64,000 nt of DNA from Dictyostelium discoideum (GCA_000004695.1 CM000151.3:480001-544000); one strand, 5' to 3'; positions 19,181 to 64,000 are shown, counted from the first letter of the stretch. Notes: generated from the sequence alone by a model not told the origin. Numbers and translations are program-made.

Positions 19181-19835
19181 ATGGATATGAAATTAAATGA
19201 TATTGAAAATGAAAATTTTATAAATCAAATGAAAGGTGTTGCAATTGTTGGTATTGGATTTAGAATCCCTTCTGGTAATAGTGAAAATTCAATTAGTTCA
19301 CCAGATGATTTATTTAATAATTTAAAGAATGGTTTTGATGGTGTTAGTAGTACATCAGAAAGATGGAGTGACAATTACCACAAGTTGGGTGAAATTAGTA
19401 GTCCAAATGCAGGTTTATTACCATTAAATGAATGGAAATCATTCGATCCATTATTTTTTGGTATTAATCCATCCGATGCTCATCATATTGATCCTCAACA
19501 AAGATTATTATTAAAATGTACATGGGAAGCATTAGAAGATGCATCTATCGATCCAATTTCAATTCGTGGTACAAATACTTCAGTTTTCATTGGCTCATCA
19601 ACTATTGATTATTTACATGCAAATAAACATCCAGATCTTATTTTAAAGAATGCTATTGGTTTTTCACCAAGTACTTTATCAAATAGAATTTCATACTGCT
19701 TCGATATCCATGGTCCTTCATTATCAATTGATACAGCTTGCTCATCATCAATGAATGCTGTTACTCAAGGTTATCACTCAATATTAAATGGTACTTCCAA
19801 TATGTCTATTGTTGGTGGTGTAAATTTTGTAATAG
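19181..19835 (+). CDS. type I iterative polyketide synthase paralog A, exon 1 (KS N-terminal part including the active-site Cys)
   Basis: ATG at 19181. The KS beta-ketoacyl synthase N-terminus is [14 protein letters not shown] ... DTACSSSMNAV. The exon ends ...VNFVI then G|GTAAGA. Confidence 0.85.
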
Positions 19836-19920
19836 GTAAGAATTCTTATATTCTTGTGATTAATTATAATTATAATTTATTTTTAAATTATTAACTATTT
19901 TATTTATTTATTCATACTAG

Positions 19921-22900
19921 ATGTTGAAACAATAAAAGGTTTTTCATATTTAAATATGTTAAGTAAAACACATGGTAAATGTAAAGCATTTGATGAAAGT
20001 GGTGATGGTTTTACACGTGGTGAATGTGCTGGTGTTGTAGTTTTAAAGAAACTTGATGATGCTATTAGAGATGGTAATAGAATTTATTGTATAATTAATG
20101 GTATAAGTTCAAATATTGATGGTAATGGAATTGCTGATAAGGCCAACTTTTATTCACCATCAAAGCAATCACAATTTAATAATATTAATTTAGCATTTAA
20201 ATCAACCAATGGTAAAATTTCAGTAAATGACATTCAATATATCGAAGCACATGGTACCGGTACTAAAACAGGTGATCCAATTGAAACTGAAGCAATTTCA
20301 ATGGCTTTTAAAAATAGAGATAAATCAACACCAATTCTAATTGGTTCAATTAAAAGTAATATTGGTCATTGTGAAGCTGGTTCAGGTGTTGTATCATTAA
20401 TCAAATGTTGTTTAATGTTTAAATATCAATGCTTTTTACCAAATATTCATTTCAAAAATCCAAATCCATTAATTAAATTCAATGAATGGAATTTAAAAGT
20501 TGTAACATCACCAATTCCATTCAACAGAAATAATGAAAAATCAGTTTCAATGATGATTAATAACTTTGGTGTTACTGGTTCAAATTGTTGTTTACTTATT
20601 TCAGAGTTTAAAAAACAAGATTATGAATCATATGAAAACAACATCGGCAGTATTAATAAAAATATATTAGTGCCATTCTCAGCAAATTCTCCAAAGTCAT
20701 TGGACCAATACCAATCAAAAATCAAAAATATAATTAATAATCAATTCAATTTTATTGATTTTGCAAATAACCAAATTTATTCAAAATCAAATTATCTTTA
20801 TCAAAGATCAGTTGTAATAGCAAATAATTCAAATGATCTTGTTAATAAAATTTTAAATAAAAAACATATTCAAACTAAAAATCCAATCATTTCAAATATG
20901 TCATTCAAAGGAAAGAATCCAATTACAATTTTTGTTTTTTCAGGTCAAGGATCACAATATCCTAAAATGGCTTTAGAATTATATAATAATGAAGTAATCT
21001 TTAAAAAATCAATTGATTTAATCGATTCAAAATTATCAAAATACTATGGTTATTCAGTTTTAGAAAAATTAAGATCGATTGGAGATGATGATACTACTTC
21101 CATTCATGATCCAACTATTGCACAACCAGCAATGTGTATGTTTTCAGTATCATTATTTGAATTATATAAACATTGGGGAGTAAATCCTTCATTTATTCTT
21201 GGTCATAGTCTTGGTGAAATCCCAACCTCATATTGTTCTGGAATGATTGATTTAGATACATTCTGTTATACAGTTTATCAAAGATCAATAGCACAAACTA
21301 AAACACATGGTAATGGTAGAATGTTATCAATCAATATTAGTGATGAAGAATTTAAATCAATGTATTCTCAAAAGTATCCACAAATTGAAATTGCGTGTTA
21401 TAATTCACCTCAATCAATTGTTGTGGCAGGTAATGAATCAATATTAAATGAAATTTCAAAAGAATTAAAAGAAAAAGAAATTTTCACTGCAATGTTAGGT
21501 TCATTATCATCATTCCATACAAGTAGTCAACAATGTACAAAAGATAGTATATTACAACTAAACATTGAAAGTAAAAAATCAAAAGTACCAACATTTTCAA
21601 CAGTTACAACAAATTTATTCAACGAATCAGATCCATTTAATTCACAGTATGTTTATGATAATATTATTAATCCAGTTAAATTCACACAAACAATTTCAAA
21701 TATTTATAAACATATCGAATCAAATCAATTAGATAATGATATTGTATTCATTGAAATTGCACCACATCCAACATTATCATTTTATATTAAACAAATGGTA
21801 CCATCAAGTTTAAATGAATCAGTTTCAGTTTATTCAGCACTTCACAAGAAAAAGAATGATGTCGAAGAGTTTCAACAAACCATTTCAAATTTATATTGTC
21901 AAAATGGATATAATATTAATTTTAAATGTCAATTTAATAATAAAAAATCAAATCAAAAAATTAATTTACCACTTTATCAATGGGATGACGAATTATATTT
22001 CGCTCAAACTCAAGTACTCGAACAACATAGAAAAGAAGGACCACCAATTGACCATCTTGGTCTATCAAACTCTTATTATTCACCATTTAAAAATTCATAT
22101 AGGACATTTATTGATATAAAGAATAAACCATTTCAATATCTAAAAGGTCATATGGTTAAAGGTAAATACTACTTCCCAGGTTGTGGTTATATTGATAATA
22201 TTATTCAGCTTTATAAAAATCAAGATATTTTTATTAGTTTTATTGAATTTAAAACACCATTAATTTTAATTGAGGGTATCAATCAATGTTTACAGACAAA
22301 CATTCAACAAACTGGTAAAAGTGAATATCGTGCACAATTTCATTTCAAAGATCAAAAATCAAATGAATGGATTCAATCATCAAATGCAAATTTCCAATTA
22401 TTAGATCACACTATTGAAATGCCACCAAAGTATAATATTGAAGAAATTATTAAAAACAAATGTACGTTGGCAAGATTAACAAAGAATGAAATTTATACTC
22501 ACATAAAATCAAAAACTGGTTTAAATTATACTGCAATGTTTCAAGGTGCTACTGAATGTTATATAGGTGTAGATTGTACATTATCAGTTGTATCAATTGA
22601 ATCTCAAACAAATTCATTTTTAAATATACCAATTTTAGATTCAGTTTTCCATGGTAACATTTCTTTAATAAATGATCAATGTCAAATTGTATTTGATAAA
22701 GTTCATGGGTTAAAGTACTATTCATCAAATATTCCAAATGATTATAAAGATAAATCAGTTTATGTATATGCAAAATTAAAATCAAAGACAAGTGATTCAT
22801 ATTCAGCTTCATTTACTGTACTATTATCGGATGGTACAGTTGTATATGAAATTGATGAAGCATTCAGTAAATCTTTAATTCCAATTAAAGAATTACTTAA

Positions 22901-25900
22901 AATTGAATATCCAAATGATGAATTATTTTCAATTAATTTACAACCAAAAGATTCTCCAATTCCAGCTCCTTCAACTTTCAAATCCCTAATTTATGAAAAT
23001 GATCGTTTCAATGCTGAACCACCAATGGTAGAGAATCTCTTTCAATACATTTCAACAATATTTTATAAAAATATTATAAATAGATGTCCAGAAATTAATA
23101 TTGATATAATTAAATCTTTAAGTATTGATGAAATTATTTCAAATTTCAGTAAAATTTCAAAACATGAAAGATTATTTAAATATGTTTTTGAAACTATAAA
23201 AGAGAATGGTATTCTTAATAGTTTGGAAGAAAAAGATGATACTTACTTTGTATTTAATGAAGTACTTATCAAATCATCAAGAGTTATTTCAAAATTATTA
23301 TTCCCATTAGAAAATGATAATGATAATGAAGATACACCTCAATTATTATTTCAAAATGGTTTAATGGATAAAGTTTATAAATGCAGATATTTAAAAAATA
23401 AGAATCAAATGATTGCCCATATTATTAAACATTCAATTAAAGAGATTATTAATAATAATATTATAATTAGAATTTTAGAATTTGGAGGAGGTACTGCATC
23501 ATTATCAGTTGAAGTTATTGAAGAAATCGTTACATTACTTCAAGAGAATCCAAATTATCAAGTTGAAATCGAATATACATGGAGTGATATTTCGCCTGCA
23601 TTCATAGTAGATACAAAGAATAAAATCAATAAAATCATTAAAGGTGCTGGTATAACAAATGGATTAAATGTTATTTATCATCCATTAACAATTGATGAAT
23701 CATTGGTAGAACTTCAATCAATCAAACCATCATATTATGATTTTGTTATAATGTCAAATGTTCTTCATGTTGTTAAAGATATTAAACAAGCTGTAGAACA
23801 AATGTATCAATTGTTAATACCAAATGGTCAATTACTTTTTGTTGAACCCCCTTATAAATCAATAATATGTGATAGTTTATTTGGTTCATTTGAACAATGG
23901 TGGGCATTCACTGATACTGATATTAGAAAAGATCATTGTTGTCTTTCTCAAGATGGTTGGTATAAATTATTGAAATGGTCAAACTTTGAAAGTATTGAAA
24001 TGTCAACTGAAAGTAAATTCATGGGATCAGTTATCCAAGCACAAAAACCATCATTTACATCATTAATAAATCAACAACCAAAGTATGATAATATTATTAT
24101 TTTTGGTAACAATTGTCCAAACTTTATTGATAATATTAAACCATTTTCAAATTTCAATGAGTTCATTCAAATTGAAACTATTCAAGAATTTGATCAACTA
24201 ATTAACAAATCAACAATTACAAATGATTCAATCATTTATTTCATAAAATCAATTAATCAGTTATCTTTGGATAATTATAAACAAGCAACTCTTGAATATA
24301 TTGAAATCAATCAAAAACTATTACAAATTAATAGTTTATGTAAACATGTATTAATTGTTAATGATTCAAGAAAAACCAACTATTTAGCATCATCAATTGT
24401 TGGTGCTGCAAGATACTTTGATGAATTCCAACAATTGAAATTACATACATTAGATTTTGATTATGATTCAACCCAAAATTATTTAATTTCAAAAAATAAC
24501 AAAATGGTTCAATTCATTAATAACTTGATAGACTCCAAAACAAATGTTCATAAAGAAATGATTATAATTAATAACAAAGTATATTATGAAATAGTTCAAA
24601 AAGAGAAAAATCTAAAATTAAAATACAATTCAGAATCTTTCGAACAACAAGATAATTTAATGTGTTCATTATCACCAAATTTAGAATATCAATTACAATC
24701 AAAACAAATTAAATTAAGAGATAATCAAGTTGAAGTTAAAACAATTGCAACTGGTATCAATAATAAAGATTACTTAGTTTATAGTGGTTTAGAAGGTAGT
24801 GTTAATTCAAATACACCACAATTTGGATATGAATTTTCAGGTATAATAACAAGAGTTGGTAATAATGTAAAAGATTATAAAGTTGGTGATAATGTATTTG
24901 GTTTATCAAATTCTTGTACATCATCCAATATTATTGTGAATCATGAAAGAATTCAAATAAAACCTTCAAACATAAGTCATATTGAAGCAGCATCAATTCC
25001 AATTGATTATTTAACATCATTTATGAGTTTATTCAATGTTGGTTGTTTAAATATTGAAGATAATGAATCAATTTTAATTCATTTAGGTAGTGATAGTTTT
25101 GGGTTATCAACATTTGAAATATTAAAATGGAAAGGTTTTAAATCAAATTTATTCGTTACAGTTAATTCGGATGAAATTAAACAATATCTTTTAAATAATT
25201 ATGGTGATTTAATAACTGCAATTTATTCAAACACAGATAAAGGTTATGTAAGTCAAATTAAAAATAAACTTATTGAACAAGGCTCAAATGATAATGGAGT
25301 AGATTTAATATTAAATACATTACCAAGTGATTTTATGGATTCAAATTTCCAATTGTTAGCAATTAATGGTAGAATTATAGATTTATCAAATGATCATTTA
25401 AACCAAAGTGAATATATGAAAAATGTAAACTTTACTCTTAATCGTGGTTATCATAATTTTGATTTAATGTCACAAAGAAATTCAAGAATCAATAGAAGTT
25501 TATTAACCATTTCAAAAGCAATTGAAAATGGTGAATTAAAATTAATTCCAATTAAAGAATTTTCAAACTCTGATATTAATGATGCAATTGAATTTATTAT
25601 TGAAGAGAATAGAATTGATAAAATTGTAGTTAGTCATGATCATGAAGTTTATCAAGAACTCTATGCTAAATTTTCAAATGAAAATGATTTTTCAATATTA
25701 AAATCAAATTATCAAATTAATTCAAATAATTTAGGTAAAAATATATTAATTACCGGTCAATCAGGTATTATTTTAGAAATATTAAAATGGATCATTAAAT
25801 ATTCAAATATTAACACAATAGAAAATGTTATTATTCTTTCAAGATCATCATTAAAATGGGAATTAGAATTATTAATTAATCAAACCAAACTATCAAATAA

Positions 25901-26804
25901 TAATATTAAATTCCATTTCAAGAGTGTTGATGTTGGTGATAGTGAACAAGTTGATAATGCAATCAATGAAATATTAAATGAAAATCAAGAAATTATAAAT
26001 ATTCATTCAATATTCCATTTTGCATTTACCCAAATTGCATGTAAAGTTCAAGAAATCAATATGAAACATTTAGATATTTCACACGGAGCAAAAACAATGG
26101 GAGCAATTAATTTACATAATCAATCAATTAAACGTAATTGGAAATTAATTAATTTTGTGATTTCGTCATCAATTGCCTCTCTTGTTGGTTCAACAGATCA
26201 GTGTTCATATGTTTGTGCAAATGCATTATTAGATTCATTTTCAAAATATAGAGTATCTCTTGGACTACCATCAACATCTATTAATCTTGGTGCAATTGAA
26301 TCAACTGGTTTCGTTTCAAAGAATGAATCGATTTCAGTATTTTTAGATGGCAGTGGTATTATTCCAACACCAATCAATCAAGTTTTAGGCCTTTTAGATT
26401 TACAAATTCAAAACCCTGGTAAATTTACAAATTCAATGGTTGCTAAATTTAATCCATTAAACTTTTCAAATAATGAACAAATTAATCTTTTATTAAAAAT
26501 GGATTACATTTTCAATTTACATTCTAATGGATATACTAAAGTAAAGGAGAGTGCTGGAAGTAAAAATGTTGATGAATTGTTTATTAAAAAAATATCAGAT
26601 TTATTCTCAATTGATGAATCTAAAATAAATAAGGATATTAGATTAATCGATTATGGCGCAGACTCATTAGTTATCGTTCAATTAAAGAATTGGGTTGACC
26701 AAGAAATTGGATTTAATTTAATTACAATTCAACAACTTCAAAATAATACAATTAATGTTTCAATTAAAATAATTTTAAATTTTTTGAAAAAGATAAATAA
26801 ATAA
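19921..26804 (+). CDS. PKS paralog A, exon 2 (rest of KS, then AT-DH-cMT-ER-KR-ACP); stop at 26802-26804
   Basis: An 84-bp intron (19836-19920, GTAAGA...ACTAG) in phase 1 restores ..[41 protein letters not shown]. The KS His motifs are EAHGTGT and [10 protein letters not shown]. The AT motif is GHSLGE, the DH motif HMVKGKYYFPGCG and the cMT SAM motif ILEFGGGTAS. There are an ER-like MDR segment, a KR Rossmann segment ILITGQSGI and an ACP motif IDYGADSLV. No domain follows the ACP. Confidence 0.85.
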
Positions 26805-27456: not shown

Positions 27457-28093
27457 ATGAATAATTTAAAAAATATAGATTTAATAGAGAAAGGTGTTGC
27501 AATTGTTGGTATTGGATTTAGAATTCCTTCTGGTAATAATGAAAATTCAATTTGTTCACCAGATGATTTATTTAATAATTTAAAGAATGGTTTTGATGGT
27601 GTTAGTAGTACATCAGAAAGATGGAGTGACAATTACCACAAGTTGGGTGAGATTAGTAGTCCAAATGCAGGTTTATTACCATTAAATGAATGGAAATCAT
27701 TCGATCCATTATTTTTTGGTATTAATCCATCTGAAGCATCTTTAATCGATCCACAACAAAGATTATTATTAAAATGTACATGGGAAGCATTAGAAGATGC
27801 GTCAATTGATCCAATTTCAATTCGTGGTACAAATACTTCAGTTTTCATTGGTGCTTCAAATATAGATTATCAACATACAAATAAACACCAAGACTCAGTT
27901 TTAAAAAATGCAATAGCACAATCCACCTGTGCAATTTCAAATAGAATATCATATTGTTTCGATTTTAATGGTCCATCATTATCAATTGATACTGCATGTT
28001 CATCATCATTAAATGCAGTTTCTCAAGGTTATCATTCAATATTAAATGGTACTTCTGATATCTCAATTGTTGGTGGTGTAAATTTAATATTAG
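27457..28093 (+). CDS. PKS paralog B, exon 1 (KS N-terminus)
   Basis: ATG at 27457. The protein is near-identical to the PKS A exon 1 product. The exon ends ...VNLIL then G|GTAAGG. Confidence 0.85.
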
Positions 28094-28175
28094 GTAAGGA
28101 TTATATTTTAATTGTATATATTTTAAATTAAAAATACACTCATTAATTAATTTTTTATTTAATTTATTTTATCAG

Positions 28176-31100
28176 ATGTTGAAATGACAAAGGCATATTC
28201 GTATTTAAGCATGTTAAGTAAAACACATGGTAAATGTAAAGCATTTGATGAAAGTGGTGATGGTTTTACACGTGGTGAATGTGTCGGTGTTGTAGTTTTA
28301 AAAAATTTACAAGATGCAATTAAAGATGGTAATAGAATTTATTGTGTAATTAATGGTTCAAGTTCAAATGTTGATGGTAATGGTAATATGGATAAAGTTA
28401 ACTTTTATTCACCATCAAAACAATCACAATTTAATAATATTAATTCAGCATTTAAATCAACAAATGACAAGCTCTCAATTAATGATATTCAATATATCGA
28501 AGCACATGGTACTGGTACTAAAACAGGTGATCCAATTGAAACTGAAGCAATTTCAATGGCTTTTAAAAATAGAGATAAATCAGCACCAATTCTAATTGGT
28601 TCAATTAAAAGTAATATTGGTCATTGTGAAGCTGGTTCAGGTGTTGCATCATTAATCAAATGTTGTTTAATGTTTAAATATCAATGCTTTTTACCAAATA
28701 TTCATTTCAAAAATCCAAATCCATTAATTAAATTCAATGAATGGAATTTAAAAGTTGTAACATCACCAATTCCATTCAACAAAAGAAATAATGAAAAACC
28801 AGTTTCAATGATGATTAATAACTTTGGTGTAACAGGTTCAAATTGTTGTTTACTTATTTCAGAATTTAAAAATAACAATAACTTTAAAGAGAATATTAAT
28901 TTAGAATCTCAAAGTGTTAATGATAGAGTGTTAATACCATTCTCAGCAAATTCATCAAATTCATTAAATCAATACCAATCAAAATTTAAAAATATAATTA
29001 ATAATCAATTCAATTTTATTGATTTTACCGCAATTCAAATTTATTCAAAATCAAATTATCTTTATCAAAGATCAGTTGTAATTGCAAGTAATTCAAATGA
29101 ACTTTTTGAAAATATCTCAAATAAAAAACAAATTCAAACTAAAAATTCAATTATCTCAAATATGTCATTCAAAGGAAAGAACCCAATTACAATTTTTGTT
29201 TTTTCAGGTCAAGGATCACAATATCCTAAAATGGCTTTAGAATTATATAATAATGAAGTAATCTTTAAAAAGTCAATTGATTTAATCGATTCAAAATTAT
29301 CAAAGTACTACGGTTTTTCAGTATGGGAGAAGGTAAAAACAATCAAAGATGATGACTTAACCTCAATACATGATCCAATTTTTGCCCAACCAGCACTATG
29401 TATGATTTCAGTATCACTATTTGAATTATATTACCATTGGGGAGTAAATCCATCATTTATTCTTGGTCATAGTCTTGGTGAAATTTCAGCATCATATTGT
29501 TCTGGAATGATTGATTTAGATACATTCTGTTATACAGTTTATCAAAGATCAATAGCACAATCTAAAACAAATGGTTGTGGTAGAATGTTATCAATTAATA
29601 TCAGTGATGAAGAATTTAAATCAATGTATTCTCAAAAGTATCCACAAATTGAAATTGCGTGTTATAATTCACCTCAATCAATTGTTGTGGCAGGTAATGA
29701 ATCAATATTAAATGAAATTTCAAAAGAATTAAAAGAAAAAGAAATTTTCACTGCAATGTTAGGTTCATTATCATCATTCCATACAAGTAGTCAACAATCT
29801 ACAAAAGATAGCATATTACAACTAAACATTGAAAGCAATCAACCAAAAGTACCAATATTTTCAACAGTTACAACAAATTTATTTAATGAATCAAATCGAT
29901 TTAATTCACAATATGTTTATGATAATATTATCAAACCAGTTAAATTCACACAAACAATTTCAAATATTTATAAACATATCGAATCAAATCAATTAGATAA
30001 TGATATTGTATTCATTGAAATTGCACCACATCCAACATTATCATTTTATATTAAACAAATGGTACCATCAAGTTTAAATGAATCAGTTTCAGTTTATTCA
30101 GCACTTCACAAGAAAAAGAATGATGTCGAAGAGTTTCAACAAACCATTTCAAATTTATATTGTCAAAATGGATATAATATTAATTTTAAATGTCAATTTA
30201 ATAATAAAAAATCAAATCTAAATATTGAATTACCTCTTTACCAATGGAGTGACGAATTATACTTCGCTCAAAATCAAGTACTTGAACAACATAGAAAAGG
30301 AGGACCACCAATTGACCATCTTGGTCTATCAAACTCTTATTATTCACCATTTAAAAATTCATATAAAACACTTATTGATATAAATTATAAACCATTTCAA
30401 TATCTTAAAGGTCATATGGTTAAAGGTAAATACTACTTCCCAGGTTGTGGTTATATTGATAATATTATTCAACTTTATAAAAATCAAGATATTTTTATTA
30501 GTTTTATTGAATTTAAAACACCATTAATTTTAATTGAAGGTATCAATCAATATTTACAAACAAACATTCAACAAACTGGTAAAAGTGAATATCGTGCACA
30601 ATTTCATTTCAAAGATCATAAATCAAATGAATGGATTCAATCATCAAATTCAAATTTCCAATTATTAGATCATGGTAATGATATACCATCAAATTATAAT
30701 ATTAAAGAAATTATTAAAAACAAATGTAATTTGAGCAAATTAACAAAGAATGAACTTTATAAAAATATTAAATCAAAAACTGGTTTAAATTATACTGGAG
30801 TTTTTCAAGGTGTTACTGAATGCTATATAGGTGATAATTGTACCTTATCAGTTGTATCTTTAGAATCTCAAACAAACTCATTTTTAAATATACCAATTTT
30901 AGATACATGCTTACACGGAATGTTAATATTAATAAATGATCAATGTCAAATTGTATTTGACAAAGCCATTGGATTTAAATATTATTCATCAAACATACCA
31001 GCAGATTTTAAAGAAAACAAAGATAGTTTTTATGTTTATTCCAATCTTAGACCAAGAGTAGGTGGTGATTCATACCATGGAACAATTATAGTAATGTTAT

Positions 31101-34100
31101 CAGATGGTTCAGTTTTATATGAAATTGAAGAAGTTGTTTGTAAATCATTAATTCCAATCAAAGATTCACTTAAAATTGAATATCCAAATGATGAATTATA
31201 CAAAGTTCATTTACAATCAAAAGATTCTCCAATTCCAACACCATCATCATTCAAATCAATTATTTATGAAAATGATTTCTTTCAATCTTCACTTAATATT
31301 CCAGAAGATTTATTCAAATATATTTCAACATTATTTTATAAAGATATTATAAAAAGATGTCCAGAAATTAATATCAATAAAATTAATTCTCATAGTGTTA
31401 ATGAAATTATTTCAAGTTTCAGTAAAATTTCAAAACATGAAAGATTATTTAGATTTGTATTTGAAACAATAAAAGAGAATGGTATTCTTAATAGCTTCGA
31501 AGAAAAAGATGACACTTACTTCGAATTTAATAAAGTAATTATCAAATCATCAAGAATTATTTCAAAATTATTATTTCCATTAGAAAATGATAATGATAAT
31601 GAAGATTTACCTCAATCATTATTTCAAAATGGTTTAATGGATAAAATTTATAAATGCAGTTATTTAAGAAAGAAGAATCAAGTGATTTCACATGTCATTA
31701 AACATTCAATTAAAGAGATTATTAATAATAATATTATAATTAGAATTTTAGAATTTGGAGGAGGTACTGCATCATTATCAGTTGAAGTTATTGAAGAAAT
31801 CGTTACATTACTTCAAGAGAATCCAAATTATCAAGTTGAAATCGAATATACATGGAGTGATATTTCACCTGCATTCATAGCAGATGCAAAGAATAAAATC
31901 AATAAAATCATTAATGATGCTGCTATAACAAATGGATTAAATGTTATTTATCATCCATTAACAATTGGTGAATCATTGATAGAAACTCAATCAATTAAAC
32001 CATCATATTATGATTTCGTTATAATGTCAAATGTTCTTCATGTTGTTAAAGATATCAAACAAGCTGTAGAACAAATGTATCAATTGTTAACGACAAATGG
32101 TCAATTAGTGTTTTTAGAACCACCTTATAAATCAGTTCTAAACGATTCAATCGTTGGTTCATTTGAACAATGGTGGTCATTCACTGATACTGATATTAGA
32201 AAAGATAGATGTGGTATGCCTCAACAAAGTTGGTATCAATTATTAAATTCGTGTAATTTTAAAGACATTGTAATGTCTAAAGAATGCATTTTCTTTGGAT
32301 CAGTAATACAGGCACAAAAACCACCAATTTCTTTATTGAATTCTCAACCAAAGTATGATAATATAATTATATATGGTGGCAGTATTAATTCAAGTTTTGT
32401 AGAAAACATCAAATTAGATTCAAATTCAAAAAGTTTATTTCAAATTGAAACTATTCAAGAATTTAATAAATTAATAAGTAAATCAACAATTACAAACGAT
32501 TCAATAGTTTATTTCATAAAAACATTAGAAACATTATCATTGGATAATTTTAAACAAATAACTCTTGAATATATTGAAATCAATCAAAAACTATTACAAA
32601 TTAATAGTTTATGTAAACATGTATTAATTGTTAGTGATTCAAGAAAAACAAACTATTTAGCATCATCAGCTATTGGTGCAGCAAGATACTTTGATGAATT
32701 CCCACTATTGAAATTACACACATTAGATTTTGATTATGATTCAACTCAAAATTATATAAATTCAAAAAATAACAAAATGGTTCAATTCATTAATATCTTG
32801 ACAGATTCCAAAACAAATGTTCATAAAGAAATGATTATAATTAATAACAAAGTATATTATGAAATAGTTCAAAAAGAGAAAAATCTAAAATTAAAATACA
32901 ATTCAGAATCTTTTGAAAATCAAAATAATTTAATGTGTTCGTTATCACCAAATTTAGAATATCAATTACAATCAAAACAAATTAAATTAAGAGATAATCA
33001 AGTTGAAGTTAAAACAATTGCAACTGGTATCAATTATAAAGATTATTTAAATTTTAGTGGTTCAAATAGCAACGGTGATGACAATACAGGTTTACCACAA
33101 TTTGGATATGAATTTTCAGGTATTATAACAAGAGTTGGTAATAATGTAAAAGATTATAAAGTTGGTGATAATGTATTTGGTTTATCAAATTCTTGTACAT
33201 CATCTCACATTGTTACAAATTTTAAAAAAATTCAAATAAAACCTTCAAAAATAAGTCATATTGAAGCATCATCAATTCCAATTGATTATTTAACATCATT
33301 TATGAGTTTATTTAATGTTGGAAGTTTAAATATTGAAGATAATGAATCGATTTTAATTCATTTAGGTAGAGATGGTTTTGGGTTATCAACATTTGAAATA
33401 TTAAAATGGAAAGGTTTTAAATCAAATTTATTCGTTACAGTTAATTCAGATAAAACTAAACAATATCTTTTAAAAAAATATGGTGATTTAATTACTGGAA
33501 TTTATTCAAACACAGATAAAAGTTATGTGGCAGAAATAAAAAACAAATTAATTAAATTAGGTTCAAAAAAGAAAGGAGTAGATTTAATATTAAATACATT
33601 ACCAAGTGATTTTATGGATTCAAATTTCAAACTATTAACAAAGTATGGTAGAATAATTGATTTAAATTCAAATCATTTAAATCAAAGTGAATTTTTAAAA
33701 AATATCAATTTTAAATATAATCATGGTTACCATAACTTTGAGTTATCATTATTTCAAAAAAATAAAATTCTCAAATGTTTAAATGAAATTTCAAATGCTA
33801 TTGAAAATGGAGAATTAAAAACTATTCCAATTAAAGAATTTACAAATTTAAATATTAAAGATGCCATCAAATACATTACCAACGGTAACATTGAAAAAAT
33901 TACAGTTAGTCATGATCATGAAATTTATAGTGATATTATTTATAGATATTTAGATGAAAAAGAGTTTTCAATATTAAAATCAAATTATCAAATTAATTCA
34001 AATAATTTAGGTAAAAATATATTAATTACAGGTCAATCAGGTATTATTTTAGAAATATTAAAATGGATCATTAAATATTCAAATATTAACACAATTGAAA

Positions 34101-39477: not shown

Positions 39478-40114
39478 ATGAATAATTTTAAGAATATAAA
39501 TTTAATAGAGAAAGGAGTTGCAATTGTTGGTATTGGATTTAGAATTCCTTCTGGTAATAATGAAAATTCAATCAGTTCACCAGATGATTTATTTAATAAT
39601 TTAAAGAATGGTTTTGATGGTGTTAGTAGTACATCAGAAAGATGGAGTGACAATTTTCATAAATTAGGTGAAATTAGTAGTCCAAATGCAGGTTTATTAC
39701 CATTTAATGAATGCAAATCATTCGATCCATTATTTTTTGGTATTAATCCATCCGAAGCACCATTGATTGATCCTCAACAAAGATTATTATTAAAATGTAC
39801 ATGGGAAGCATTAGAAGATGCATCTATTGATCCAATTTCAATTCGTGGTACAAATACTTCAGTTTTCATTGGTTCTTCAAATATTGATTATTTACATACA
39901 AATAAACATCAAGACTCAGTTTTAAAAAATGTAATAGCACAATCCACCTGTGCAATTTCAAATAGAATATCATATTGTTTCGATTTTAATGGTCCATCAT
40001 TATCAATTGATACTGCATGTTCATCATCATTAAATGCAATTTCTCAAGGTTATCATTCAATATTAAATGGTACTTCTGATATCTCAATTGTTGGTGGTGT
40101 AAATTTAATATTAG
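39478..40114 (+). CDS. PKS paralog C, exon 1 (KS N-terminus)
   Basis: ATG at 39478. The exon ends ...VNLIL then G|GTAAGG. Confidence 0.85.
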
Positions 40115-40186
40115 GTAAGGATTAAATATATATATTTTAAAAATACACTCATTAATTAAATTTAATTTATTTAAATATTTTACTAG

Positions 40187-46100: not shown

Positions 46101-47091
46101 TATTATTCTTTCAAGATCATCATTAAAATGGGAATTAGAGTTATTAATTAATCAAACTAAACTATCAAATAATAATATTAAATTTCATTTCAAGAGTATT
46201 GATGTTGGTGATAGTGAACAAGTTGATAATGCAATCAATGAAATATTAAATGAAAATCAACAAATTACAAATATTGATTCAATATACCATTTTGCATTTC
46301 AACAAATTACATGTAAAGTTCAAGAAATCAATATGAAACATTTAGATATTTCACATGGAGCAAAATCAATGGGAGCAATTAATTTACATAATCAATCAAT
46401 TAAACGTAATTGGAAATTAATTAATTTTGTTATGGCTTCTTCTGCAATTTCATTAATAGGTTCAACAGATTTATGTACATATGCTTGTGCAAATACTCTA
46501 CTAGATTCATTTTCAAAATACAGAGTATCACTTGGATTACCATCTGCATGTATTAACTTTGGATCAATTGAATCTACTGGTTTCGTTTCAAAGAATGAAT
46601 CAGTTTCAGTATTTTTAGACGGTGGTGGTTTCCATCCAACACCAATCAATCAAGTTTTAGGCCTTTTAGATTTACAAATTCAAAATTCTGGTAAATTCAC
46701 AAATTCAATGCTTTCAAATTTCAAACCCTCAAAATTTAAAAATAATCAACAAATATCATTATTTCTAAAATTTGATTACTTGATGAATTTAAAAAACAAT
46801 AGTGAACAAACTAAAAAAGAGAATATTGGAAATAAAAACATTGATGAATTATTCATTGAGAAAGTTTCAGAATTATTTTCAACCGATGAATCAAAAATAA
46901 ATAAAAATCTTAGATTAATCGATTATGGTGCAGATTCATTAATAATAGTTCAATTAAAGAATTGGATAGATAAAGAAATTGGTATTAATTTAATAACAAT
47001 TCAACAACTTCAAAATAATACAATTAATATTTCAATCAAAATGATATTAAATTCATTAATGAAAAATAATCAATGTGGAAGGGAAATTTAA
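40187..47091 (+). CDS. PKS paralog C, exon 2 (KS-AT-DH-cMT-ER-KR-ACP); ends ...MKNNQCGREI* directly after the ACP
   Basis: Intron 40115-40186 in phase 1. It is more than 90% identical to paralog B through the ACP. No R domain is present. Confidence 0.85.
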
Positions 47092-47477: not shown

Positions 47478-47516
<39 letters not shown>

Positions 47517-48348: not shown

Positions 48349-48390
<42 letters not shown>

Positions 48391-48834: not shown

Positions 48835-50170
48835 AAATAAACTATTGTAGTATACAATTAGTATGTTATTTTTATTTATTTATTTTAGGTTTTTTAGTTT
48901 TTGTGAATTTAAAATGGTATGTTATTTTAGATGTGGTAATTAATAATTAATTGGTAGTGTAATTGTTGGAATTGGTTCATTTGTGTTTATGCTCCATTCT
49001 TTTTTAAATTTTTTGATGGTTTCGGACCATTGGGTTTCTTTTTGAGTTTTTGTGAGGTTGTTTTTAATTGAGTATTGGTTAAAGTTTGATAATGTTCTTG
49101 AATATTCCAATCTTATTAGCTTGTGCCATTTTGATTTTAATATATCATAATCTAGTGTTGTGTTGTTTATTTGGTTGTTCCAATTGTCAATTGATTGAGT
49201 TATATTGATGTCAAATAATGATTTGCATAACCATATTTGGTGAATAACTAATGAGATTATGTTCCAATATGCATGTGTTCTGACTAGATCAAGATTTGTT
49301 TATATAATTCCAGTTGAATCTGTATTTTTTATATTGTGCGTTTTCTGCTAAATGAAAATTAATATTGATAGTTGGATCTGGTTTAAATGCTTTGTTGTTT
49401 GTTTGTGGTTTATAAATGAGTGTGTATAATTTTGTTGTTTGGTTTTTTGTTAGTGACCAGTTTTTGTTTCCATTGCAATTTTTATATATAAAATATTTTA
49501 ATTTGTCGTGGTTTATGAAGTTGATTGTGTGCTGACAATTGAAAAACAAATGACCATAGGGATCATTATTCATTTCATTGTTGCAAATGGGGCAAACTTT
49601 GTTGTGTAGATGATTAATTGGAAGACATCTAGCATGGAATCTTTGCATTGTATCACGGCCTTTTGGATCTTTTAATTTTTGAATTTTGACAAATAGTTGG
49701 TCGTATGTGTATTTCCATAATAGTTGTATTGATTGTTGGTGCGAAGTAAGAAGTATATCTGAATATTTCTTGCCAACATAGTCTTTTGATTTACATTGGT
49801 GATTGTTGAGTATTGTCGAGTAGATTTCTTTGAGTGTTGGTGGTAGTGAAATATTATTTGTGGTTAATGTTTGAGAGGTTTGGTTTTTTGTTAATATTGG
49901 TTGTAGGGTTTGAACTTTATCTTTTAGATGTCCAATTTGAGTTGCATAGTTTTCCCATTCTTTTTTGATTTTTATAAGGTATGGAGAAGAGATTGATTTG
50001 TTGATGATTTGATCCATCCAACTTATCATGTATATTGAATTGTTTGCAGATTTATGCTTTTGTAAAAATCTGTTGTATATCCAAATCTTTTGAGCAACTT
50101 GTCGTAATTGTATATTCCACATACCCCAACCACCTTCTTTTAATGGTGTTTCAACAAATTGAAACAAATT
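48835..50170 (-). mobile_element. 5'-truncated non-LTR (LINE/TRE-like) retrotransposon 3' fragment: ORF2 post-RT region plus a C-terminal CCHC zinc-knuckle
   Basis: The minus ORF 49289-50167 contains PLKEGGWGMWNI, the conserved post-RT E-GG-LG motif of L1-type ORF2. It also contains CPICNNEMNNDPYGHLFFNC (CX2CX11HX4C, the ORF2 C-terminal zinc-knuckle). The segment is richer in G+T than the flanks. A T13 run at 48821-48833 is consistent with a poly(A) tail on the minus strand. Confidence 0.55.
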
Positions 50171-51617: not shown

Positions 51618-51691
51618 GTAAGAATTACATTTAAATATATTATATATAAAATACACTCATTAATTAATTTTTTATTTAAATATTTTACTAG

Positions 51692-57600: not shown

Positions 57601-58599
57601 ATTAACACAATTGAAAATGTTATTATTCTTTCAAGATCATCATTAAAATGGGAATTAGAATTATTAATTAATCAAACTAAACTATCAAATAATAATATTA
57701 AATTTCATTTCAAGAGTGTTGATGTCGGTGATAGTGAACAAGTTGATAATGCAATCAATGAAATATTAAATGAAAATCAACAAATTACAAATATTGATTC
57801 AATATACCATTTTGCATTTCAACAAATTACATGTAAAGTTCAAGAAATCAATATGAAACATTTAGATATTTCACATGGAGCAAAATCAATGGGTGCAGTT
57901 AATTTACATAATCAATCAATTAAACGTAATTGGAAATTAATTAATTTTGTTATGGCTTCTTCTGCACTTTCATTAATAGGTTCAACAGATCAATGTACAT
58001 ATGCCTGTGCAAACCTATTATTAGATTCATTTTCAAAATACAGAGAATCACTTGGATTACCATCTGCTTGTATTAACCTTGGGTCAATTGAATCAACTGG
58101 TTTCGTTTCAAAGAATGAATCAATTTCAGAATTTACAGATGGCATTGGTTACGTTCCAACACCTATCAATCTAGTTTTAGGTCTTTTAGATTTACAAATT
58201 CAAAATGCAGGTAAATTTACGAATTCAATGCTTTCAAATTTAATATCATCAAAATTTAAAAATATTCAACAAACATCATTATTTCTAAAATTTGATTACT
58301 TGATGAATTTAAATGACAACAGTGAACAAACTAAAAAAGAGAATATTGGAAATAAAAACATTGATGAATTATTCATTGAGAAAGTTTCAGAATTATTTTC
58401 AACGGATCAATCAAGAATAAATAAAAATCTTAGATTAATTGATTATGGCGCAGATTCATTAATAATAGTTCAATTAAAGAATTGGATAGATAAAGAAATT
58501 GGTATAAATTTAATAACAATTAAACAACTTCAAAACAATACAATTAATATTTCAATCAAAATGATATTAAATTCATTAATGAAAAATAATCAAATATAG
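51692..58599 (+). CDS. PKS paralog D, exon 2 (KS-AT-DH-cMT-ER-KR-ACP); ends ...MKNNQI* directly after the ACP
   Basis: Intron 51618-51691 in phase 1. The domain signatures are as in B and C. After the stop, 58640-58690 still matches the extreme 3' end of the B R-domain coding sequence (CATTACTAGAAT(T/C)ATCAAC...GATCTT), which marks an internal deletion. Confidence 0.85.
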
Positions 58600-58971
58600 A
58601 TGACAATAATAATACATACAATAGATATTAACCCAATGAAAATCAAAACATTACTAGAATTATCAACAGATAATGGGTGATCTTGAAATTTTTTATTTAA
58701 ATAAGATTCAAATTTTACTTTGCGTTTTTTTTATTTAATATTTTTAGATTTGGGTAGTTTTGGACATTATAAAATAAAAAATCTAAATCTAAATAAAATA
58801 AAAAATACAAATCTAAATTATTCTTTTTTATAAAAAAAAAAAAAAAAAAAAAAGTCAAATCAACATAAAAACATCTTCAGACATTATTTTTAAAATTGAA
58901 TTTATAAAAAAAATTTTATTTATAAAAATAAAATTTTTTCTCAATTAATATAGATATTTCAAAACTAAATT

Positions 58972-60470
58972 ATGAATAATTTTAAAAAATATAAATTTAA
59001 TAGATAAAGGTGTTGCAATTGTTGGGGTGGGGTTCAGAATTCCTTCTGGTAATTATGAAAATTCAATTAGTTCACCAGATTATTAAATTTAATAATTTAA
59101 AGAATGGTTTTGATGGTGTTAGTAGTACATCAGAAAGATGGAGTGACAATTTTCATAAATTAGGTGAAATTAGTAGTCCAAATGCAGGTTTATTACCATT
59201 TAATGAATGCAAATCATTCGATCCATTATTTTTTGGTATTAATCCATCCGATGCTCATCAGATTGATCCTCAACAAAGATTATTATTAAAATGTACATGG
59301 GAAGTATTAGAAGATGCATCTATTGATCCAATTTCAATTCGTGGTACAAATACTTCAGTTTTCATTGGTTCTTCAACTATCGATTATCAACTGTTTCGAT
59401 TTTAATGGTCCATCATTTTCAATGCATGTTCATCATCATTAAATGTTGTTTAATGTTTAAATATCAATGCTTTTTACCAAATATTCATTTCAAAAATCCA
59501 AATCCATTAATTAAATTCAATGAATGGAATTTAAAAGTTGTAACATCACCAATTCCATTCAACAAAAGAAATAATGAATTACCAGTTTCAATGATGATTA
59601 ATAACTTTGGTTTAACAGGTTCAAATTGTTGTTTACTTTTAACAGAATATAAAAAACAAGATTATGAATCATATGAAACTATCTACAAAAATGATAATAG
59701 TAAAAATATATTAATACCATTTTCAGCAAATTCAACAAATTCATTAAATCAATACCAATCAAAATTTAAAAATATAAATAATAATCAATTCAATTTTATT
59801 GATTTTACCGCAAATCAAATTTATTCAAAATCAAATTATCTTTATCAAAGATCGGTTGTAATCGCAAGTAATTCAAATGAACTTTTTGAAAAAATTTTAA
59901 ATAAAAAACAAATTCGAAATAAAAATTCAATCATCTCAAATATGTCATTCAAAGGAAAGAATCCAATTACAATTTTTGTTTTTTCAGGTCAAGGATCACA
60001 ATATCCTAAAATGGCTTTAGAATTATATAATAATGAAGTAATCTTTAAAAAATCAATTGATTTAATCGATTCAAAATTATCAAAGTACTATGGTTATTCA
60101 GTATGGGAGAAGGTAAAAAAAATCAAAGATTATGATACTACTTCCATTCATGATCCAACTATTGTACAACCAGCAGTGTGTATGTTTTCAGTATCATTAT
60201 TTGAATTGTATTGCCATTGGGGAGTAAATCCATCATTTATTCTTGGTCATAGTATTGGTGAAATTTCAACATTATATTGTTCTGGAATAATCGATTTAGA
60301 TACATTTTATCACAGATCAATAGCACAAACTAAAACACACTGTAATGGTGGGCATCCACTGATATTGATATTAGGAAAAATAGATGTAGTATGTCTCAAC
60401 AAAGTTGGTATCAATTATTAAATAACAGTAATTATAAAGACATTGCAATGTGCATGCTAAAATTAAAAAG
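58972..60470 (+). pseudogene. PKS relic (paralog E): KS-N fragment, KS-C/AT fragment and cMT fragment fused by internal deletions, with frameshifts
   Basis: ATG at 58972 followed by an immediate frameshift ([11 protein letters not shown]). The recognisable [32 protein letters not shown]...IDYQ jumps to [24 protein letters not shown]... (KS C-terminus) and runs through the AT domain GHSIGE. It then jumps to a DIRKDRCGMSQQSWYQLL-like fragment of the cMT region. Multiple stops are present. Confidence 0.8.
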
Positions 60471-61446: not shown

Positions 61447-62083
61447 ATGGGTAATTTAAAAAATATAAATTTAAAAGAGAAAGGAGTTGCAATTGTTGGT
61501 ATTGGATTTAGAATTCCTTCTGGTAATAATGAAAATTCAATTAGTTCACCAGATGATTTATTTAATAATTTAAAGAATGGTTTTGATGGTGTTAGTAGTA
61601 CATCAGAAAGATGGAGTGACAATTTTCATAAATTAGGTGAAATTAGTAGTCCAAATGCAGGTTTATTACCATTTAAAGAATGGAAATCATTCGACCCATT
61701 ATTTTTTGGTATTAATCCATCTGAAGCTCCATTAATCGATCCTCAACAAAGATTATTATTAAAATGTACATGGGAAGCATTAGAAGATGCATCTATTGAT
61801 CCAATTTCAATTCGTGGTACAAATACTTCAGTTTTCATTGGTTCTTCAACTATTGATTATTTACATACAAATAAACATCAAGACTCAGTTTTAAAGAATG
61901 CAATAGCACAATCAACCAGTGCGATTTCAAATAGAATTTCATACTGTTTCGATTTTAATGGTCCATCACTATCAATTGATACTGCATGTTCATCATCATT
62001 AAATGCAGTTTCTCAAGGTTATCATTCAATATTAAATGGTACTTCCAATATGTCAATTGTTGGTGGTGTAAATTTAATATTAG
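61447..62083 (+). CDS. PKS paralog F, exon 1 (KS N-terminus)
   Basis: ATG at 61447. The exon ends ...VNLIL then G|GTAAGG. Confidence 0.8.
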
Positions 62084-62149
62084 GTAAGGATTATTATTTT
62101 TTTTTTAAAATTAAAAATACACTTATTAATTAAAATTTATTTTTATTAG

Positions 62150-64000
62150 ATGTTGATATTATAAAAGCATATTCGATTTTAAGCATGTTAAGTAAAACAC
62201 ATGGTAAATGTAAAACATTTGATGAAAGTGGCGATGGTTTTACACGTGGTGAATGTGTCGGTGTTGTAGTTTTAAAGAATTTACAAGATGCAGTAAAAGA
62301 TGGTAATAGAATTTATTGTGTAATTAATGGTTCAAGTTCAAATGTTGATGGTAATGGTAATATGGATAAAGTTAACTTTTATTCACCATCAAAACAATCA
62401 CAATTTAATAATATTAATTCAGCATTTAAGTCAACAAATGACAAACTCTCGATTAATGATATTCAATATATCGAAGCACATGGTACCGGTACTAAAACAG
62501 GCGATCCAATTGAAACTGAAGCAATTTCAATGGCTTTTAAAAATAGAGATAAATCAACACCAATTCTAATTGGTTCAATTAAAAGTAATATTGGTCATTG
62601 TGAAGCTGGTTCAGGTGTTGCATCATTAATCAAATGTTGTTTAATGTTTAAATATCAATGCTTTTTACCAAATATTCATTTCAAAAATCCAAATCCATTA
62701 ATTAAATTCAATGAATGGAATTTAAAAGTTGTAACCTCACCAATTCCATTCAACAAAAGAAATAATGAAAAACCAGTTTCAATGATGATTAATAACTTTG
62801 GTGTAACAGGTTCAAATTGTTGTTTACTTATTTCAGAATTTAAAAATAACAATAACTTTAAAGAGAATATTAATTTAGAATCTCAAAGTGTTAATGATAG
62901 AGTGTTAATACCATTCTCAGCAAATTCATCAAATTCATTAAATCAATACCAATCAAAATTTAAAAATATAATTAATAATCAATTCAATTTTATTGATTTT
63001 ACCGCAAATCAAATTTATTCAAAATCAAATTTTCTTTATCAAAGATCAGTTGTAATTGCAAGTAATTCAAATGAACTTTTTGAAAATATCTCAAATAAAA
63101 AACAAATTCAAACTAAAAATTCAATCATCTCAAATATGTCATTCAAAGGAAAGAACCCAATTACAATTTTTGTTTTTTCAGGTCAAGGATCACAATATCC
63201 TAAAATGGCTTTAGAATTATATAATAATGAAGTAATCTTTAAAAAGTCAATTGATTTAATCGATTCAAAATTATCAAAGTACTATGGTTTTTCAGTATGG
63301 GAGAAGGTAAAAACAATCAAAGATGATGACTTAACCTCAATACATGATCCAATTTTTGCCCAACCAGCACTATGTATGATTTCAGTATCACTATTTGAAT
63401 TATATTACCATTGGGGAGTAAATCCATCATTTATTCTTGGTCATAGTCTTGGTGAAATTTCAGCATCATATTGTTCTGGAATGATTGATTTAGATACATT
63501 CTGTTATACAGTTTATCAAAGATCAATAGCACAATCTAAAACAAATGGTTGTGGTAGAATGTTATCAATTAATATCAGTGATGAAGAATTTAAATCAATG
63601 TATTCTCAAAAGTATCCACAAATTGAAATCGCATGTTATAATTCACCTCAATCAATTGTTGTGGCAGGTAATGAATCAATATTAAATGAAATTTCAAAAG
63701 AATTAAAAGAAAAAGAAATTTTCACCACAATGTTAGGTTCATTATCATCATTCCATACAAGTAGCCAACAATGTACAAAAGATAGTATATTACAACTAAA
63801 CATTGAAAGTAATCAACCAAAAGTACCAATATTTTCAACAGTTACAACAAATTTATTTAATGAATCAAATCGATTTAATTCACAATATGTTTATGATAAT
63901 ATTATCAAACCAGTTAAATTCACACAAACAATTTCAAATATTTATAAACATATCGAATCAAATCAATTAAATAATGAAATTGTATTCATTGAAATTGCAC
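62150..64000 (+). CDS. PKS paralog F, exon 2 (KS C-terminus and AT), partial; continues beyond the window end
   Basis: Intron 62084-62149 in phase 1. The frame is open and almost identical to the paralog B exon 2 start, including [24 protein letters not shown], through [11 protein letters not shown] and on to the window end. The track does not list it only because it has no stop in the window. Confidence 0.75.

Follow-up and report, generated by a model that had tools for sequence, protein, structure and literature searches.

How many polyketide synthase (PKS) genes make up the array at positions 19181-64000 of the analysed window (the whole 64,000-nucleotide stretch of Dictyostelium discoideum AX4 chromosome 2), and how did its copies come to resemble and differ from one another? 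The ORF list, Pfam and tblastn of unit B against the window located head-to-tail PKS units on the plus strand from 19181 to the window end, in line with the tandem co-oriented array proposed in the initial annotation, and matches to UniProt and NCBI proteins identified the window as pks5-pks6-pks7-pks8-(relic)-pks9. In protein comparison, the spliced models of units A, B, C and D were residue-for-residue Pks5, Pks6, Pks7 and Pks8/35, and the 829 residues readable from unit F coincided with the start of Pks9/36. These exact matches to D. discoideum AX4 "Probable polyketide synthase" 5, 6, 7, 8/35 and the start of 9/36 confirm the organism and gene class given initially, and identity to the annotated products places the units in the pks family as pks5-pks9. 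The six units first proposed are reduced to five genes (A, B, C, D and F), the fifth unit along the array being a relic. The paralogs which the initial annotation left unnamed are pks5, pks6, pks7, pks8/35, the relic and pks9/36. We are highly confident that the region is the annotated pks5-9 tandem array, a judgement that takes in the readings of mechanism, ER, R domain, duplication and conversion given below.

The gene models, all on the plus strand and supported by exact or prefix matches and, for A-D, by Pfam, are as follows. Unit A is pks5 (DDB_G0271520, Q86JI5; 19181..26804, 2512 aa, motifs also found), with exon 1 at 19181-19835, the intron at 19836-19920 and exon 2 at 19921-26804; unit B is pks6 (DDB_G0271524, B0G0Z9; 27457..36313, 2924 aa), with exon 1 at 27457-28093, the intron at 28094-28175 and exon 2 at 28176-36313; unit C is pks7 (DDB_G0271614, B0G100; 39478..47091, 2513 aa), with exon 1 at 39478-40114, the intron at 40115-40186 and exon 2 at 40187-47091; and unit D is pks8/35 (DDB_G0271618 / DDB_G0295667; 50981..58599, 2514 aa), with exon 1 at 50981-51617, the intron at 51618-51691 and exon 2 at 51692-58599. 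Unit F is the 5' part of pks9/36 (DDB_G0271530 / DDB_G0295659; 61447..64000), with exon 1 at 61447-62083, the intron at 62084-62149 and exon 2 from 62150 onwards; the full protein has 2931 aa including an R domain, and is interrupted by the window end at residue 829, within AT or immediately behind it, so that only KS-AT is visible within the window. On the basis of reading-frame logic and database gene models, a single GTAAG...AG intron of 85, 82, 72, 74 and 66 nt was found in A, B, C, D and F, respectively. In all five it divides the same Asp codon (G|AT) within GGVN(L/F)(I/V)(L/I)D|VE, and since exon 1 has 655 or 637 nt it is in phase 1. The site is flanked upstream by the KS Cys (DTACSSS, B residue 181) and downstream by the His motifs (EAHGTGT 321-327, NIGHCE 359-364), so the intron claimed initially holds for these five units and fails for unit E, from which the intron region is deleted.

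Unit E (58791..60453, plus strand; Pfam and tblastn) is a decayed PKS relic in three pieces, which lie in different frames with frameshifts and stops. These are the upstream region and KS N-terminus to just beyond the Cys motif (58791-59391), the KS-AT linker and AT N-terminus with GHSIG (59427-60349), and the cMT tail (60346-60453), and by tblastn only the equivalents of unit B residues about 4-190, 372-681 and 1545-1580 are kept. Besides the intron region, both KS His motifs, DH, most of cMT, ER, KR and ACP are deleted or absent; in the AX2-like assembly the unit is annotated as two small ORFs. The pks7-pks8 spacer holds a 5'-truncated ORF2 fragment of a multi-copy non-LTR retrotransposon (48943..50146, minus strand; tblastn extent), which is not part of the PKS system. 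The fragment corresponds to the region following the reverse transcriptase towards the C-terminus, includes a Cys/His knuckle and is 94-97% identical to proteins from several D. discoideum chromosomes, two of them with PF00078; it accounts for the GC-skew spike at 48-50 kb.

The Pfam domain order in A-D (PF00109/PF02801, PF00698, weak PS-DH/PKS_DH_N, PF08242, PF08240/PF13602, PF08659, PF23297) supports the proposed class of KS-AT-DH-cMT-ER-KR-ACP highly reducing (HR) type I PKS; each of these units, and not unit E, has the single-module architecture of an iterative enzyme. A motif scan found DTACSSS, EAHGTGT, NIGHCE, GHSLGE, HMVKGKYYFP and GADSL in A-D and in full-length Pks9, and the cMT SAM motif ILEFGGG was intact in every complete copy. 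The ER NADPH loop of AX4 Pks5-9 reads IHLG(S/R)D(S/G)FGLS, with GG(V/I)G changed to D(S/G)FG, so that no GGVG-type glycine-rich loop, as expected of a functional ER, occurs in Pks5-9. In outgroup PKSs the loop is GG(V/I)G and in the D. firmibasis copies it is SGVG or GGVG, and related degenerate forms were seen in the other D. discoideum-group isolates examined. Judging from this one motif, none of the five copies is likely to have a catalytically active ER (ER0 domain); the pN/pS of 0.32-0.53 in the ER domain indicates that it is conserved for some role, which counts against its inactivity.

The shared core in A-D is what remains of the uniform architecture claimed at first, as two genes carry a terminal reductase (R) domain and one unit is a dead fragment. 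In pks6, a C-terminal segment (35086..36313, plus strand) consisting of a linker and a thioester reductase is added that is not in pks5, pks7 or pks8, and NAD_binding_4 (PF07993) matches within it at about 35201-35902 (plus strand, Pfam E=4e-52); in nucleotide alignment the homology of the other units to unit B ends at 35077-35085, and pks6 has 2924 aa against about 2513 aa in the R-less copies. The domain carries TGTTGFLG (NAD(P)H loop) at 2556 and YMKSK (catalytic Tyr/Lys) at 2723, and among solved structures its closest match is the MxaA reductase (4u7w, E=1e-25). The Pks9/36 database protein ends in an R domain with the same two motifs; in both proteins an SDR Rossmann fold with TGxxGxxG and YxxxK directly follows the carrier protein, as is characteristic of R/TR domains. 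The Pfam and motif scans found neither domain nor motifs in pks5, pks7 and pks8, and no release domain of any kind was present in these three. The initial reading had been made to depend on uniform domain order and intron position, and departures from it were found in the two R-bearing units and in the fragment without the intron region.

Directly past the pks8 stop codon lies a frameshifted remnant of the ACP-R linker (58597..58700, plus strand), which reads NIDDNNN... in another frame; its Pks9 counterpart is NIDDNNKDLPSNRIDYW, and in the wild isolate FIW the pks8 orthologue has the C-terminus ...NIDGNNKNLPSNRID. This remnant suggests that pks8 once had an R domain that has since been lost. 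The common ancestor of pks6-9 would then already have carried the R domain, with truncation removing it at least from pks8; for the clade as a whole, the patchy occurrence of R on the tree may reflect a recombinational gain in that ancestor.

The initial annotation had stated that B, C, D and F are more than 90% identical and A more diverged, and nucleotide alignment agreed, giving 91.0-95.6% (B-C 94.6%, B-D 94.3%, C-D 94.3%, B-F 95.6%, C-F 91.0%, D-F 92.1%) against 87.4-89.6% for A (pks5) with the other units. Its description of the locus as young and actively duplicating was upheld in the first part by dS of about 0.12 within pks6-8 and of about 0.26 between these and pks5, and by an NJ tree in which the pks6-9 clade is limited to D. 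discoideum and close relatives. Active duplication was not supported: the AX4 order of pks5, pks6(R), pks7 and pks8 recurs in a divergent wild isolate, in which 3-8% of aligned bases differ in the flanking single-copy genes and a pks9-type protein bears the next locus tag, indicating no visible change in copy number. The sequence comparisons instead show exchange between copies by gene conversion, apparently ongoing.

Gene conversion is indicated by mosaic similarity together with a spatially clustered phylogenetic signal. Across 80-codon windows the identity of pks5 to the others ranges from 70% to 99%, and catalytic cores are among the windows of highest similarity (KS His motifs, DH N-terminus, KR NADPH site), while the most divergent are mostly linkers. 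This distribution of conserved cores and free linkers is also what uneven purifying selection without any conversion would produce, and uneven constraint could lie behind part of the mosaic. As the whole explanation we consider it improbable, because synonymous four-fold sites are heterogeneous too (0/36 differences in codons 721-840 vs 9/39 and 10/41 elsewhere; p=0.0018), copy groupings change along the gene ({A,C} vs {B,D,F} in codons 561-700; {B,F} at 100% vs {C,D} at 97% in codons 401-480), and quartet-informative sites are split almost equally (62/57/49) yet clustered, with 20 AC|BD sites bunched in codons 601-700 and a compatibility of neighbouring informative sites exceeding all 5000 permutations. 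In addition, comparison of the two genomes gave the pattern of concerted evolution in a tandem array, with identities of 94.3-94.8% for within-genome paralogs, 93.4-94.0% for cross-genome non-orthologues and 95.0-95.2% for positional orthologues, and an AX4 paralog closer than the orthologue in 13-16 of 25 windows. It is somewhat less probable still that pks6-pks9 are redundant copies of pks5 on the way to becoming pseudogenes like unit E. That one unit has already decayed, the degenerate ER motif, an overall dN/dS of 0.3-0.4 that is fairly relaxed, and the absence of a published phenotype or product for pks6, 8 and 9 would fit such decay; against it, AX4 and the wild isolate both retain intact ORFs (2513-2931 codons), all catalytic motifs except the ER loop are preserved, and every domain for which pN/pS could be computed gives a value below 1 (one 55-codon linker pair has no synonymous differences), with an overall dN/dS of 0.18-0.40. 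Specific metabolite features are also lost when pks7 is knocked out (few and distinct, by untargeted metabolomics), and pks6 transcript levels respond in a PPTase mutant (PMC12625978).

That the units are fatty acid synthases (FAS) instead of polyketide synthases is very unlikely, although animal FAS chains match at E about 1e-109 to 1e-112 and the top solved-structure match is D. discoideum Pks16 (9nju), which we take to be a FAS-like family member and one of the pair Dd1/Dd2. These two very similar D. discoideum PKS-family genes were proposed as fatty acid synthases by Sucgang et al. 2011 (PMC3188802). The animal matches fall in KS-AT, a region common to the whole superfamily, every source names the proteins polyketide synthase 5-9, and the features of an animal-type FAS are missing: no thioesterase match was obtained with Pfam in A-D, the SAM motif of the cMT is intact and the NADPH loop of the ER has degenerated. 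For pks5 the FAS reading is contradicted by experiment, as its product is a methylated polyene (PMC9618038) and not a saturated fatty acid. Least probable of all is an assembly artefact in which near-identical units were wrongly expanded or chimerised in the reference; 7.6 kb repeats at 94-96% identity are difficult for short Sanger reads, and a large duplication is known in the AX4 chromosome 2 reference (PMC2643946), but an independent assembly from long reads, probably that of AX2 (PMC12745789), reproduced 23 kb (40944-64000), comprising the 3' part of pks7, the spacer with the retroelement, pks8, the relic and the start of pks9, with no mismatch and just 11 small indels, and the order from pks5 to pks8 recurs in the wild isolate.

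Under the preferred reading of a tandem PKS array shaped by conversion, each intact gene would encode one KS-AT-DH-cMT-ER-KR-ACP module reused iteratively to add malonyl units to an acyl chain, which KR would reduce, DH dehydrate and cMT occasionally C-methylate; iterative use was shown experimentally for Pks5 alone (PMC9618038). Pks5 produces dictyodenes, yellow polyene acids (C18) that are synthesised in cup cells and keep spores dormant (PMC9618038). The degenerate ER loop agrees with this polyene, and polyene-type chains are predicted for pks6-9. In pks6 and pks9 the terminal thioester reductase, of the SDR type, would release the chain reductively as an aldehyde or alcohol. Tandem duplication within the D. 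discoideum lineage would have built the array, with an early split of pks5 (dS about 0.26) followed by that of pks6-9 (dS about 0.12), the copies being partly homogenised via gene conversion, each domain kept under purifying selection and one copy decaying into the relic E.

The pks5-9 array is already known, and lineage-specific PKS expansion in social amoebae, of which this locus is a textbook example, was previously reported (Sucgang et al. 2011, PMC3188802). The locus opens no new question; the re-examination corrects the gene count and architectures of the array and offers predictions of polyene products and of reductive release for Pks6 and Pks9, and the 88-96% identity with conversion tracts complicates guide-RNA design, read mapping and orthology calls. 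Among the publications covered, none was found to describe the conversion tracts, the scar of R loss or the degeneration of the ER loop across the clade; Zucko et al. 2007, which lay outside them, may hold part. A tentative further idea, which we rate as possible and rather doubtful, is that the array serves as a natural combinatorial set, with domain-sized conversion among five near-identical HR-PKS chassis and unequal recombination turning R on (pks6, pks9) or off (pks7 and pks8, the latter with its linker scar). If true, a single polyene scaffold would yield acids, aldehydes or alcohols on release, and these would serve different biological roles.

Among known systems, the closest is Pks5 itself (dictyodene synthase; Günther et al. 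2022, PMC9618038), the sole Dictyostelium HR-PKS with a known product and role: it is unit A, and B, C, D and F share its core architecture and intron at 87-90% nucleotide identity (88% was given for pks5 vs pks7 in the same paper), with the terminal reductase added in pks6 and pks9. D. firmibasis has an orthologous locus type, a tandem triple on consecutive locus tags (RB653_009874-009876) with proteins of 2513-2514 aa about 74% identical; the triple is monophyletic and so an independent expansion, its ER loop is largely intact (SGVG/GGVG), and it contains no R-bearing copy. The C-termini of pks6 and pks9 share the PF07993 fold, the TGxTGFLG loop and YxxSK with the terminal reductases of MxaA (4u7w), CAR and AusA; in contrast to these, the Dictyostelium domain is fused to a eukaryotic iterative HR-PKS, where it may carry out a 2- or a 4-electron reduction. 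The fungal HR-PKS LovB (PDB 7cpx; E=4e-108 over KS-AT-DH) is likewise an iterative single KS-AT-DH-cMT-ER-KR-ACP module and retains a non-functional ER-like domain, but it belongs to a separate lineage, ends in a condensation-type domain and works with the trans-ER LovC, whereas no trans-ER or tailoring genes were seen beside the Dictyostelium pks genes. D. discoideum Pks16 (cryo-EM 9nju; PMC12828403) is the best solved-structure relative (1474 bits) and has the same megasynthase fold, but it is a distant paralog of the array proteins, and its best stretch spans only residues 3-1254.

The G+C content of the window is 20-29%, and from 19.2 kb onward the ORF list shows a run of very long plus-strand ORFs, each preceded by an ORF of 215-237 codons. 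According to Pfam, the short ORFs each encode a ketosynthase (KS) N-terminal domain, while the long ORFs encode the remaining KS, followed by AT, (DH), C-methyltransferase (cMT), ER, KR and an SdgA-type ACP. Splicing of each short and long ORF via a GTAAG...AG intron gave uninterrupted proteins. Four of these plus-strand models were residue-for-residue identical to D. discoideum AX4 proteins, namely pks5 (Probable polyketide synthase 5, DDB_G0271520, from 19181), pks6 (DDB_G0271524, from 27457), pks7 (DDB_G0271614, from 39478) and pks8/35 (DDB_G0271618/DDB_G0295667, from 50981). The last unit, pks9/36 (DDB_G0271530/DDB_G0295659, plus strand, from 61447), is cut by the window end, and its residues 1-829 equal the start of the database protein. 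The Pks5-Pks9 database proteins are all encoded on chromosome 2, and these exact matches confirm the initial annotation in recognising a Dictyostelium PKS array.

Upstream of the array, three single-copy genes were identified by Pfam, encoding a REV3-type DNA polymerase zeta (277-8472, plus strand; REV3_N, POL3_N, DNA_pol_B and zf-C4pol, with a single intron near 811-936), a myotubularin-related phosphatase of 1693 aa (8534-13615, minus strand) and a PAP2 lipid phosphatase (14360-15460, minus strand).

One intron per unit was found in pks5, pks6, pks7, pks8 and pks9 (85, 82, 72, 74 and 66 nt, respectively), and it is in phase 1, since exon 1 is 655 nt in pks5 and 637 nt in pks6-9. In all five units, it splits the Asp codon of GGVNLILD|VE as G|AT at the same site, between the KS Cys motif DTACSSS and both His motifs (EAHGTGT and NIGHCE), as had been proposed. 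The proposed divergence pattern also holds, in which pks5 is the outlier and the other intact copies share more than 90% of their nucleotides. Pairwise nucleotide identity was 94.3-94.6% among pks6, pks7 and pks8, and 95.6%, 91.0% and 92.1% between the visible part of pks9 and pks6, pks7 and pks8, respectively, but 87.4-89.6% between pks5 and every other copy; about 88% was reported for pks5 and pks7 by Günther et al. (PMC9618038).

The claim of six equivalent units of one architecture was not sustained, as the window contains four complete genes, one relic and one truncated view. The fifth unit (58791-60453) is a relic in which tblastn and three-frame translation recognised three pieces: a KS N-terminus that is interrupted by frameshifts and stops and reaches just beyond the Cys motif; the KS-AT linker plus the initial third of AT; and 36 residues of the cMT tail. 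The intron and the stretch with both His motifs are deleted, and DH, most of cMT, ER, KR and ACP are also gone.

The four complete genes themselves have two architectures. Pks6 (2924 aa, against about 2513 aa) carries after the ACP a PF07993 thioester reductase (R) domain (E=4e-52) with the motifs TGTTGFLG and YMKSK; among solved structures, the MxaA terminal reductase is closest to it (4u7w, E=1e-25). For pks9, the architecture assigned to it is seen in the window only to residue 829; in the database, the full-length protein of 2931 aa has a C-terminal reductase as well. Homology between the units stops exactly at the ACP end (...MKNNQ). Downstream of the pks8 stop codon, another frame (NIDDNNN...) matches the NIDDNNKDLPSNRIDYW linker of Pks9, and the pks8 orthologue of FIW, a divergent wild isolate (GCA_054859355.1), ends in ...NIDGNNKNLPSNRID; therefore, pks8 derives from a reductase-bearing ancestor and lost the domain via truncation. 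Remains of the R domain were sought 3' of pks5 and pks7 and none was found, so that the linker scar is seen at pks8 only. R presence is patchy among more distant relatives, so the domain may have been either gained or lost deeper in the tree.

Proteins with a single KS-AT-DH-cMT-ER-KR-ACP module belong to the iterative type I highly reducing PKSs. In Pks9 and the products of the four complete genes, every catalytic motif is preserved except the ER NADPH loop, which reads IHLG(S/R)D(S/G)FGLS in Pks5-9. Related degenerate forms occur in other D. discoideum-group isolates, while outgroup PKSs have IHS(A/G)SGG(V/I)GLS and the D. firmibasis copies SGVG or GGVG. Because of this degenerate loop, the ER of Pks5-9 is predicted from sequence to be inactive, which would fit full conjugation of the product. 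Constraint on the domain nevertheless persists (pN/pS 0.32-0.53), presumably owing to a structural role. Pks6 and Pks9 would release their chains reductively; Pks5, Pks7 and Pks8 have neither a thioesterase nor a reductase domain for release. Pks5 has been shown to produce dictyodenes A and B (PMC9618038); these C18 polyene acids are yellow, bear a single C-methyl group and a 17-hydroxyl, originate in cup cells and keep spores from germinating prematurely. Knock-out of pks7 removed a few distinct metabolite features (PMC12625978).

An assembly artefact or a peculiarity of laboratory strains could also produce an array of near-identical copies, and both were weighed against other genomes. The long-read assembly GCA_054883475.1, probably the AX2 genome of PMC12745789, matched the window from 40944 to 64000 with 0 mismatches and 11 small indels. 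In FIW, the PAP2 and myotubularin genes are likewise followed downstream by pks5, pks6 (2902 aa, with reductase), pks7 and pks8, arranged as in AX4, and a pks9-type protein (FIW_011182) has the next locus tag after pks8. Both explanations are therefore rejected. Although labelled D. discoideum, FIW shows differences from AX4 at 3-8% of the aligned bases when the flanking single-copy genes are compared. An additional gene of the pks6-9 type (FIW_000318, 2525 aa, with an R-linker stub at its end) lies on another of its contigs, and no exact AX4 counterpart of this gene was seen.

Since AX4 and FIW, as far as read, do not differ in copy number or order, the description of the locus as actively duplicating is unsupported; that the copies are actively exchanging sequence is supported. 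Comparisons of pks5 with the other copies gave a dS of about 0.26, and those within pks6-8 a dS of about 0.12. dN/dS between copies was 0.18-0.40, pN/pS was below 1 in each domain for which it was computable, and the search across the genes for domains with pN/pS above 1, a sign of diversifying selection, found none. In the NJ tree, the pks5 clade, which includes a D. citrinum orthologue, is sister to a pks6-9 clade of D. discoideum and D. cf. discoideum sequences with one D. citrinum sequence as sister. The three D. firmibasis genes, which are consecutive, group together in a separate clade, indicating independent expansion or homogenisation. Sucgang et al. 2011 (PMC3188802) described a lineage-specific expansion of PKS genes, with which this picture is consistent.

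Along the gene, identity of pks5 to the others ranged from 70% to 99% (80-codon windows). At codons 401-480, pks6 and pks9 are 100% and pks7 and pks8 97% identical, with 84-86% between the pairs, whereas at codons 601-700, 20 sites pair pks5 with pks7 and pks6 with pks8. Quartet-informative sites were nearly equally divided over the three topologies (62/57/49) and spatially clustered, the neighbour-incompatibility statistic was below all 5000 permutations, and four-fold-degenerate sites were heterogeneous (p=0.0018). Between AX4 and FIW, positional orthologues were 95.0-95.2% (pks6-8) and 96.1% (pks5) identical, within-genome paralogs 94.3-94.8% and cross-genome non-orthologues 93.4-94.0%, and an AX4 paralog was closer than the orthologue in 13-16 of the 25 windows, each of 300 nt. 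These patterns point to tandem duplication shortly before the isolates split, with patchy gene conversion thereafter.

The pks6-pks7 and pks7-pks8 spacers (36313-39478 and 47091-50981) are about 1.5 kb shorter in FIW (8325-10001 and 17671-20047 of its locus L002), suggesting that the excess represents insertions specific to the AX4/NC4 lineage. Among them would be a 5'-truncated, multi-copy non-LTR retrotransposon ORF2 fragment in the pks7-pks8 spacer (48943-50146, minus strand), which may be absent from the FIW spacer. Proteins encoded on several chromosomes share 94-97% identity with this fragment, two of them with reverse-transcriptase domains, and the fragment explains the GC-skew spike in the window. 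The tRNA scan of the window found none, so the fragment is not beside a tRNA gene here, and Rfam gave no window matches at the gathering threshold. Spacer ORFs 47857-48270, 37604-37861 and 37077-37265 had no Pfam match, and no tailoring-enzyme genes were found between the PKS genes by Pfam on spacer ORFs. The AX2-like long-read assembly calls a 129-aa gene at ORF 47857-48270 (137 codons). In a 247-nt, 85% identical inverted repeat (47453-47699 and 48190-48407), the left arm reproduces, in inverted orientation, the 3' end of this ORF together with its poly(A/T)-rich tail.

The genes pks8 and pks9 carry double names and pks7 a single one; hence, judged from the names alone, the left boundary of the ~750-kb inverted AX3/AX4 chromosome 2 duplication probably lies in the spacer 47092-50980. 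Approximate positions of this duplication are about 2.25-3 Mb (Bloomfield 2008). Among contigs encoding Pks8/35, the AX2-like assembly alone matched, and the window looks native, being identical to it from 40944 onward.

The tandem repeats found were AAT/ATA/TGT triplet arrays only (36-88 copies), all upstream of the PKS array (1889-1995, 2599-2728, 3803-3922, 6622-6777, 8544-8781, 14436-14553 and 16283-16545). Several lie within coding regions as homopolymer Asn/Tyr-type tracts, and they cross-match each other and region 38001-38352. Just upstream of pks5 (~16930-17645, minus strand), acyl/acetyl-CoA-synthetase-like strings (FWKTIEKHKVSVAFTGP; SGDRGFKDKNGFY) occur in broken ORFs; with a Pfam AMP-binding match of only E=0.26, these ORFs may represent a decayed AMP-ligase pseudogene. 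The equivalent place in FIW is annotated with a gene of 107 aa, which matches ACAS_N weakly.

The observations on the ER loop, the reductase-loss scar and gene conversion may overlap in part with Zucko et al. 2007. The array is a real locus, already annotated and partly characterised, and ER-loop degeneration, the reductase-loss scar and the conversion tracts are modest refinements on it.
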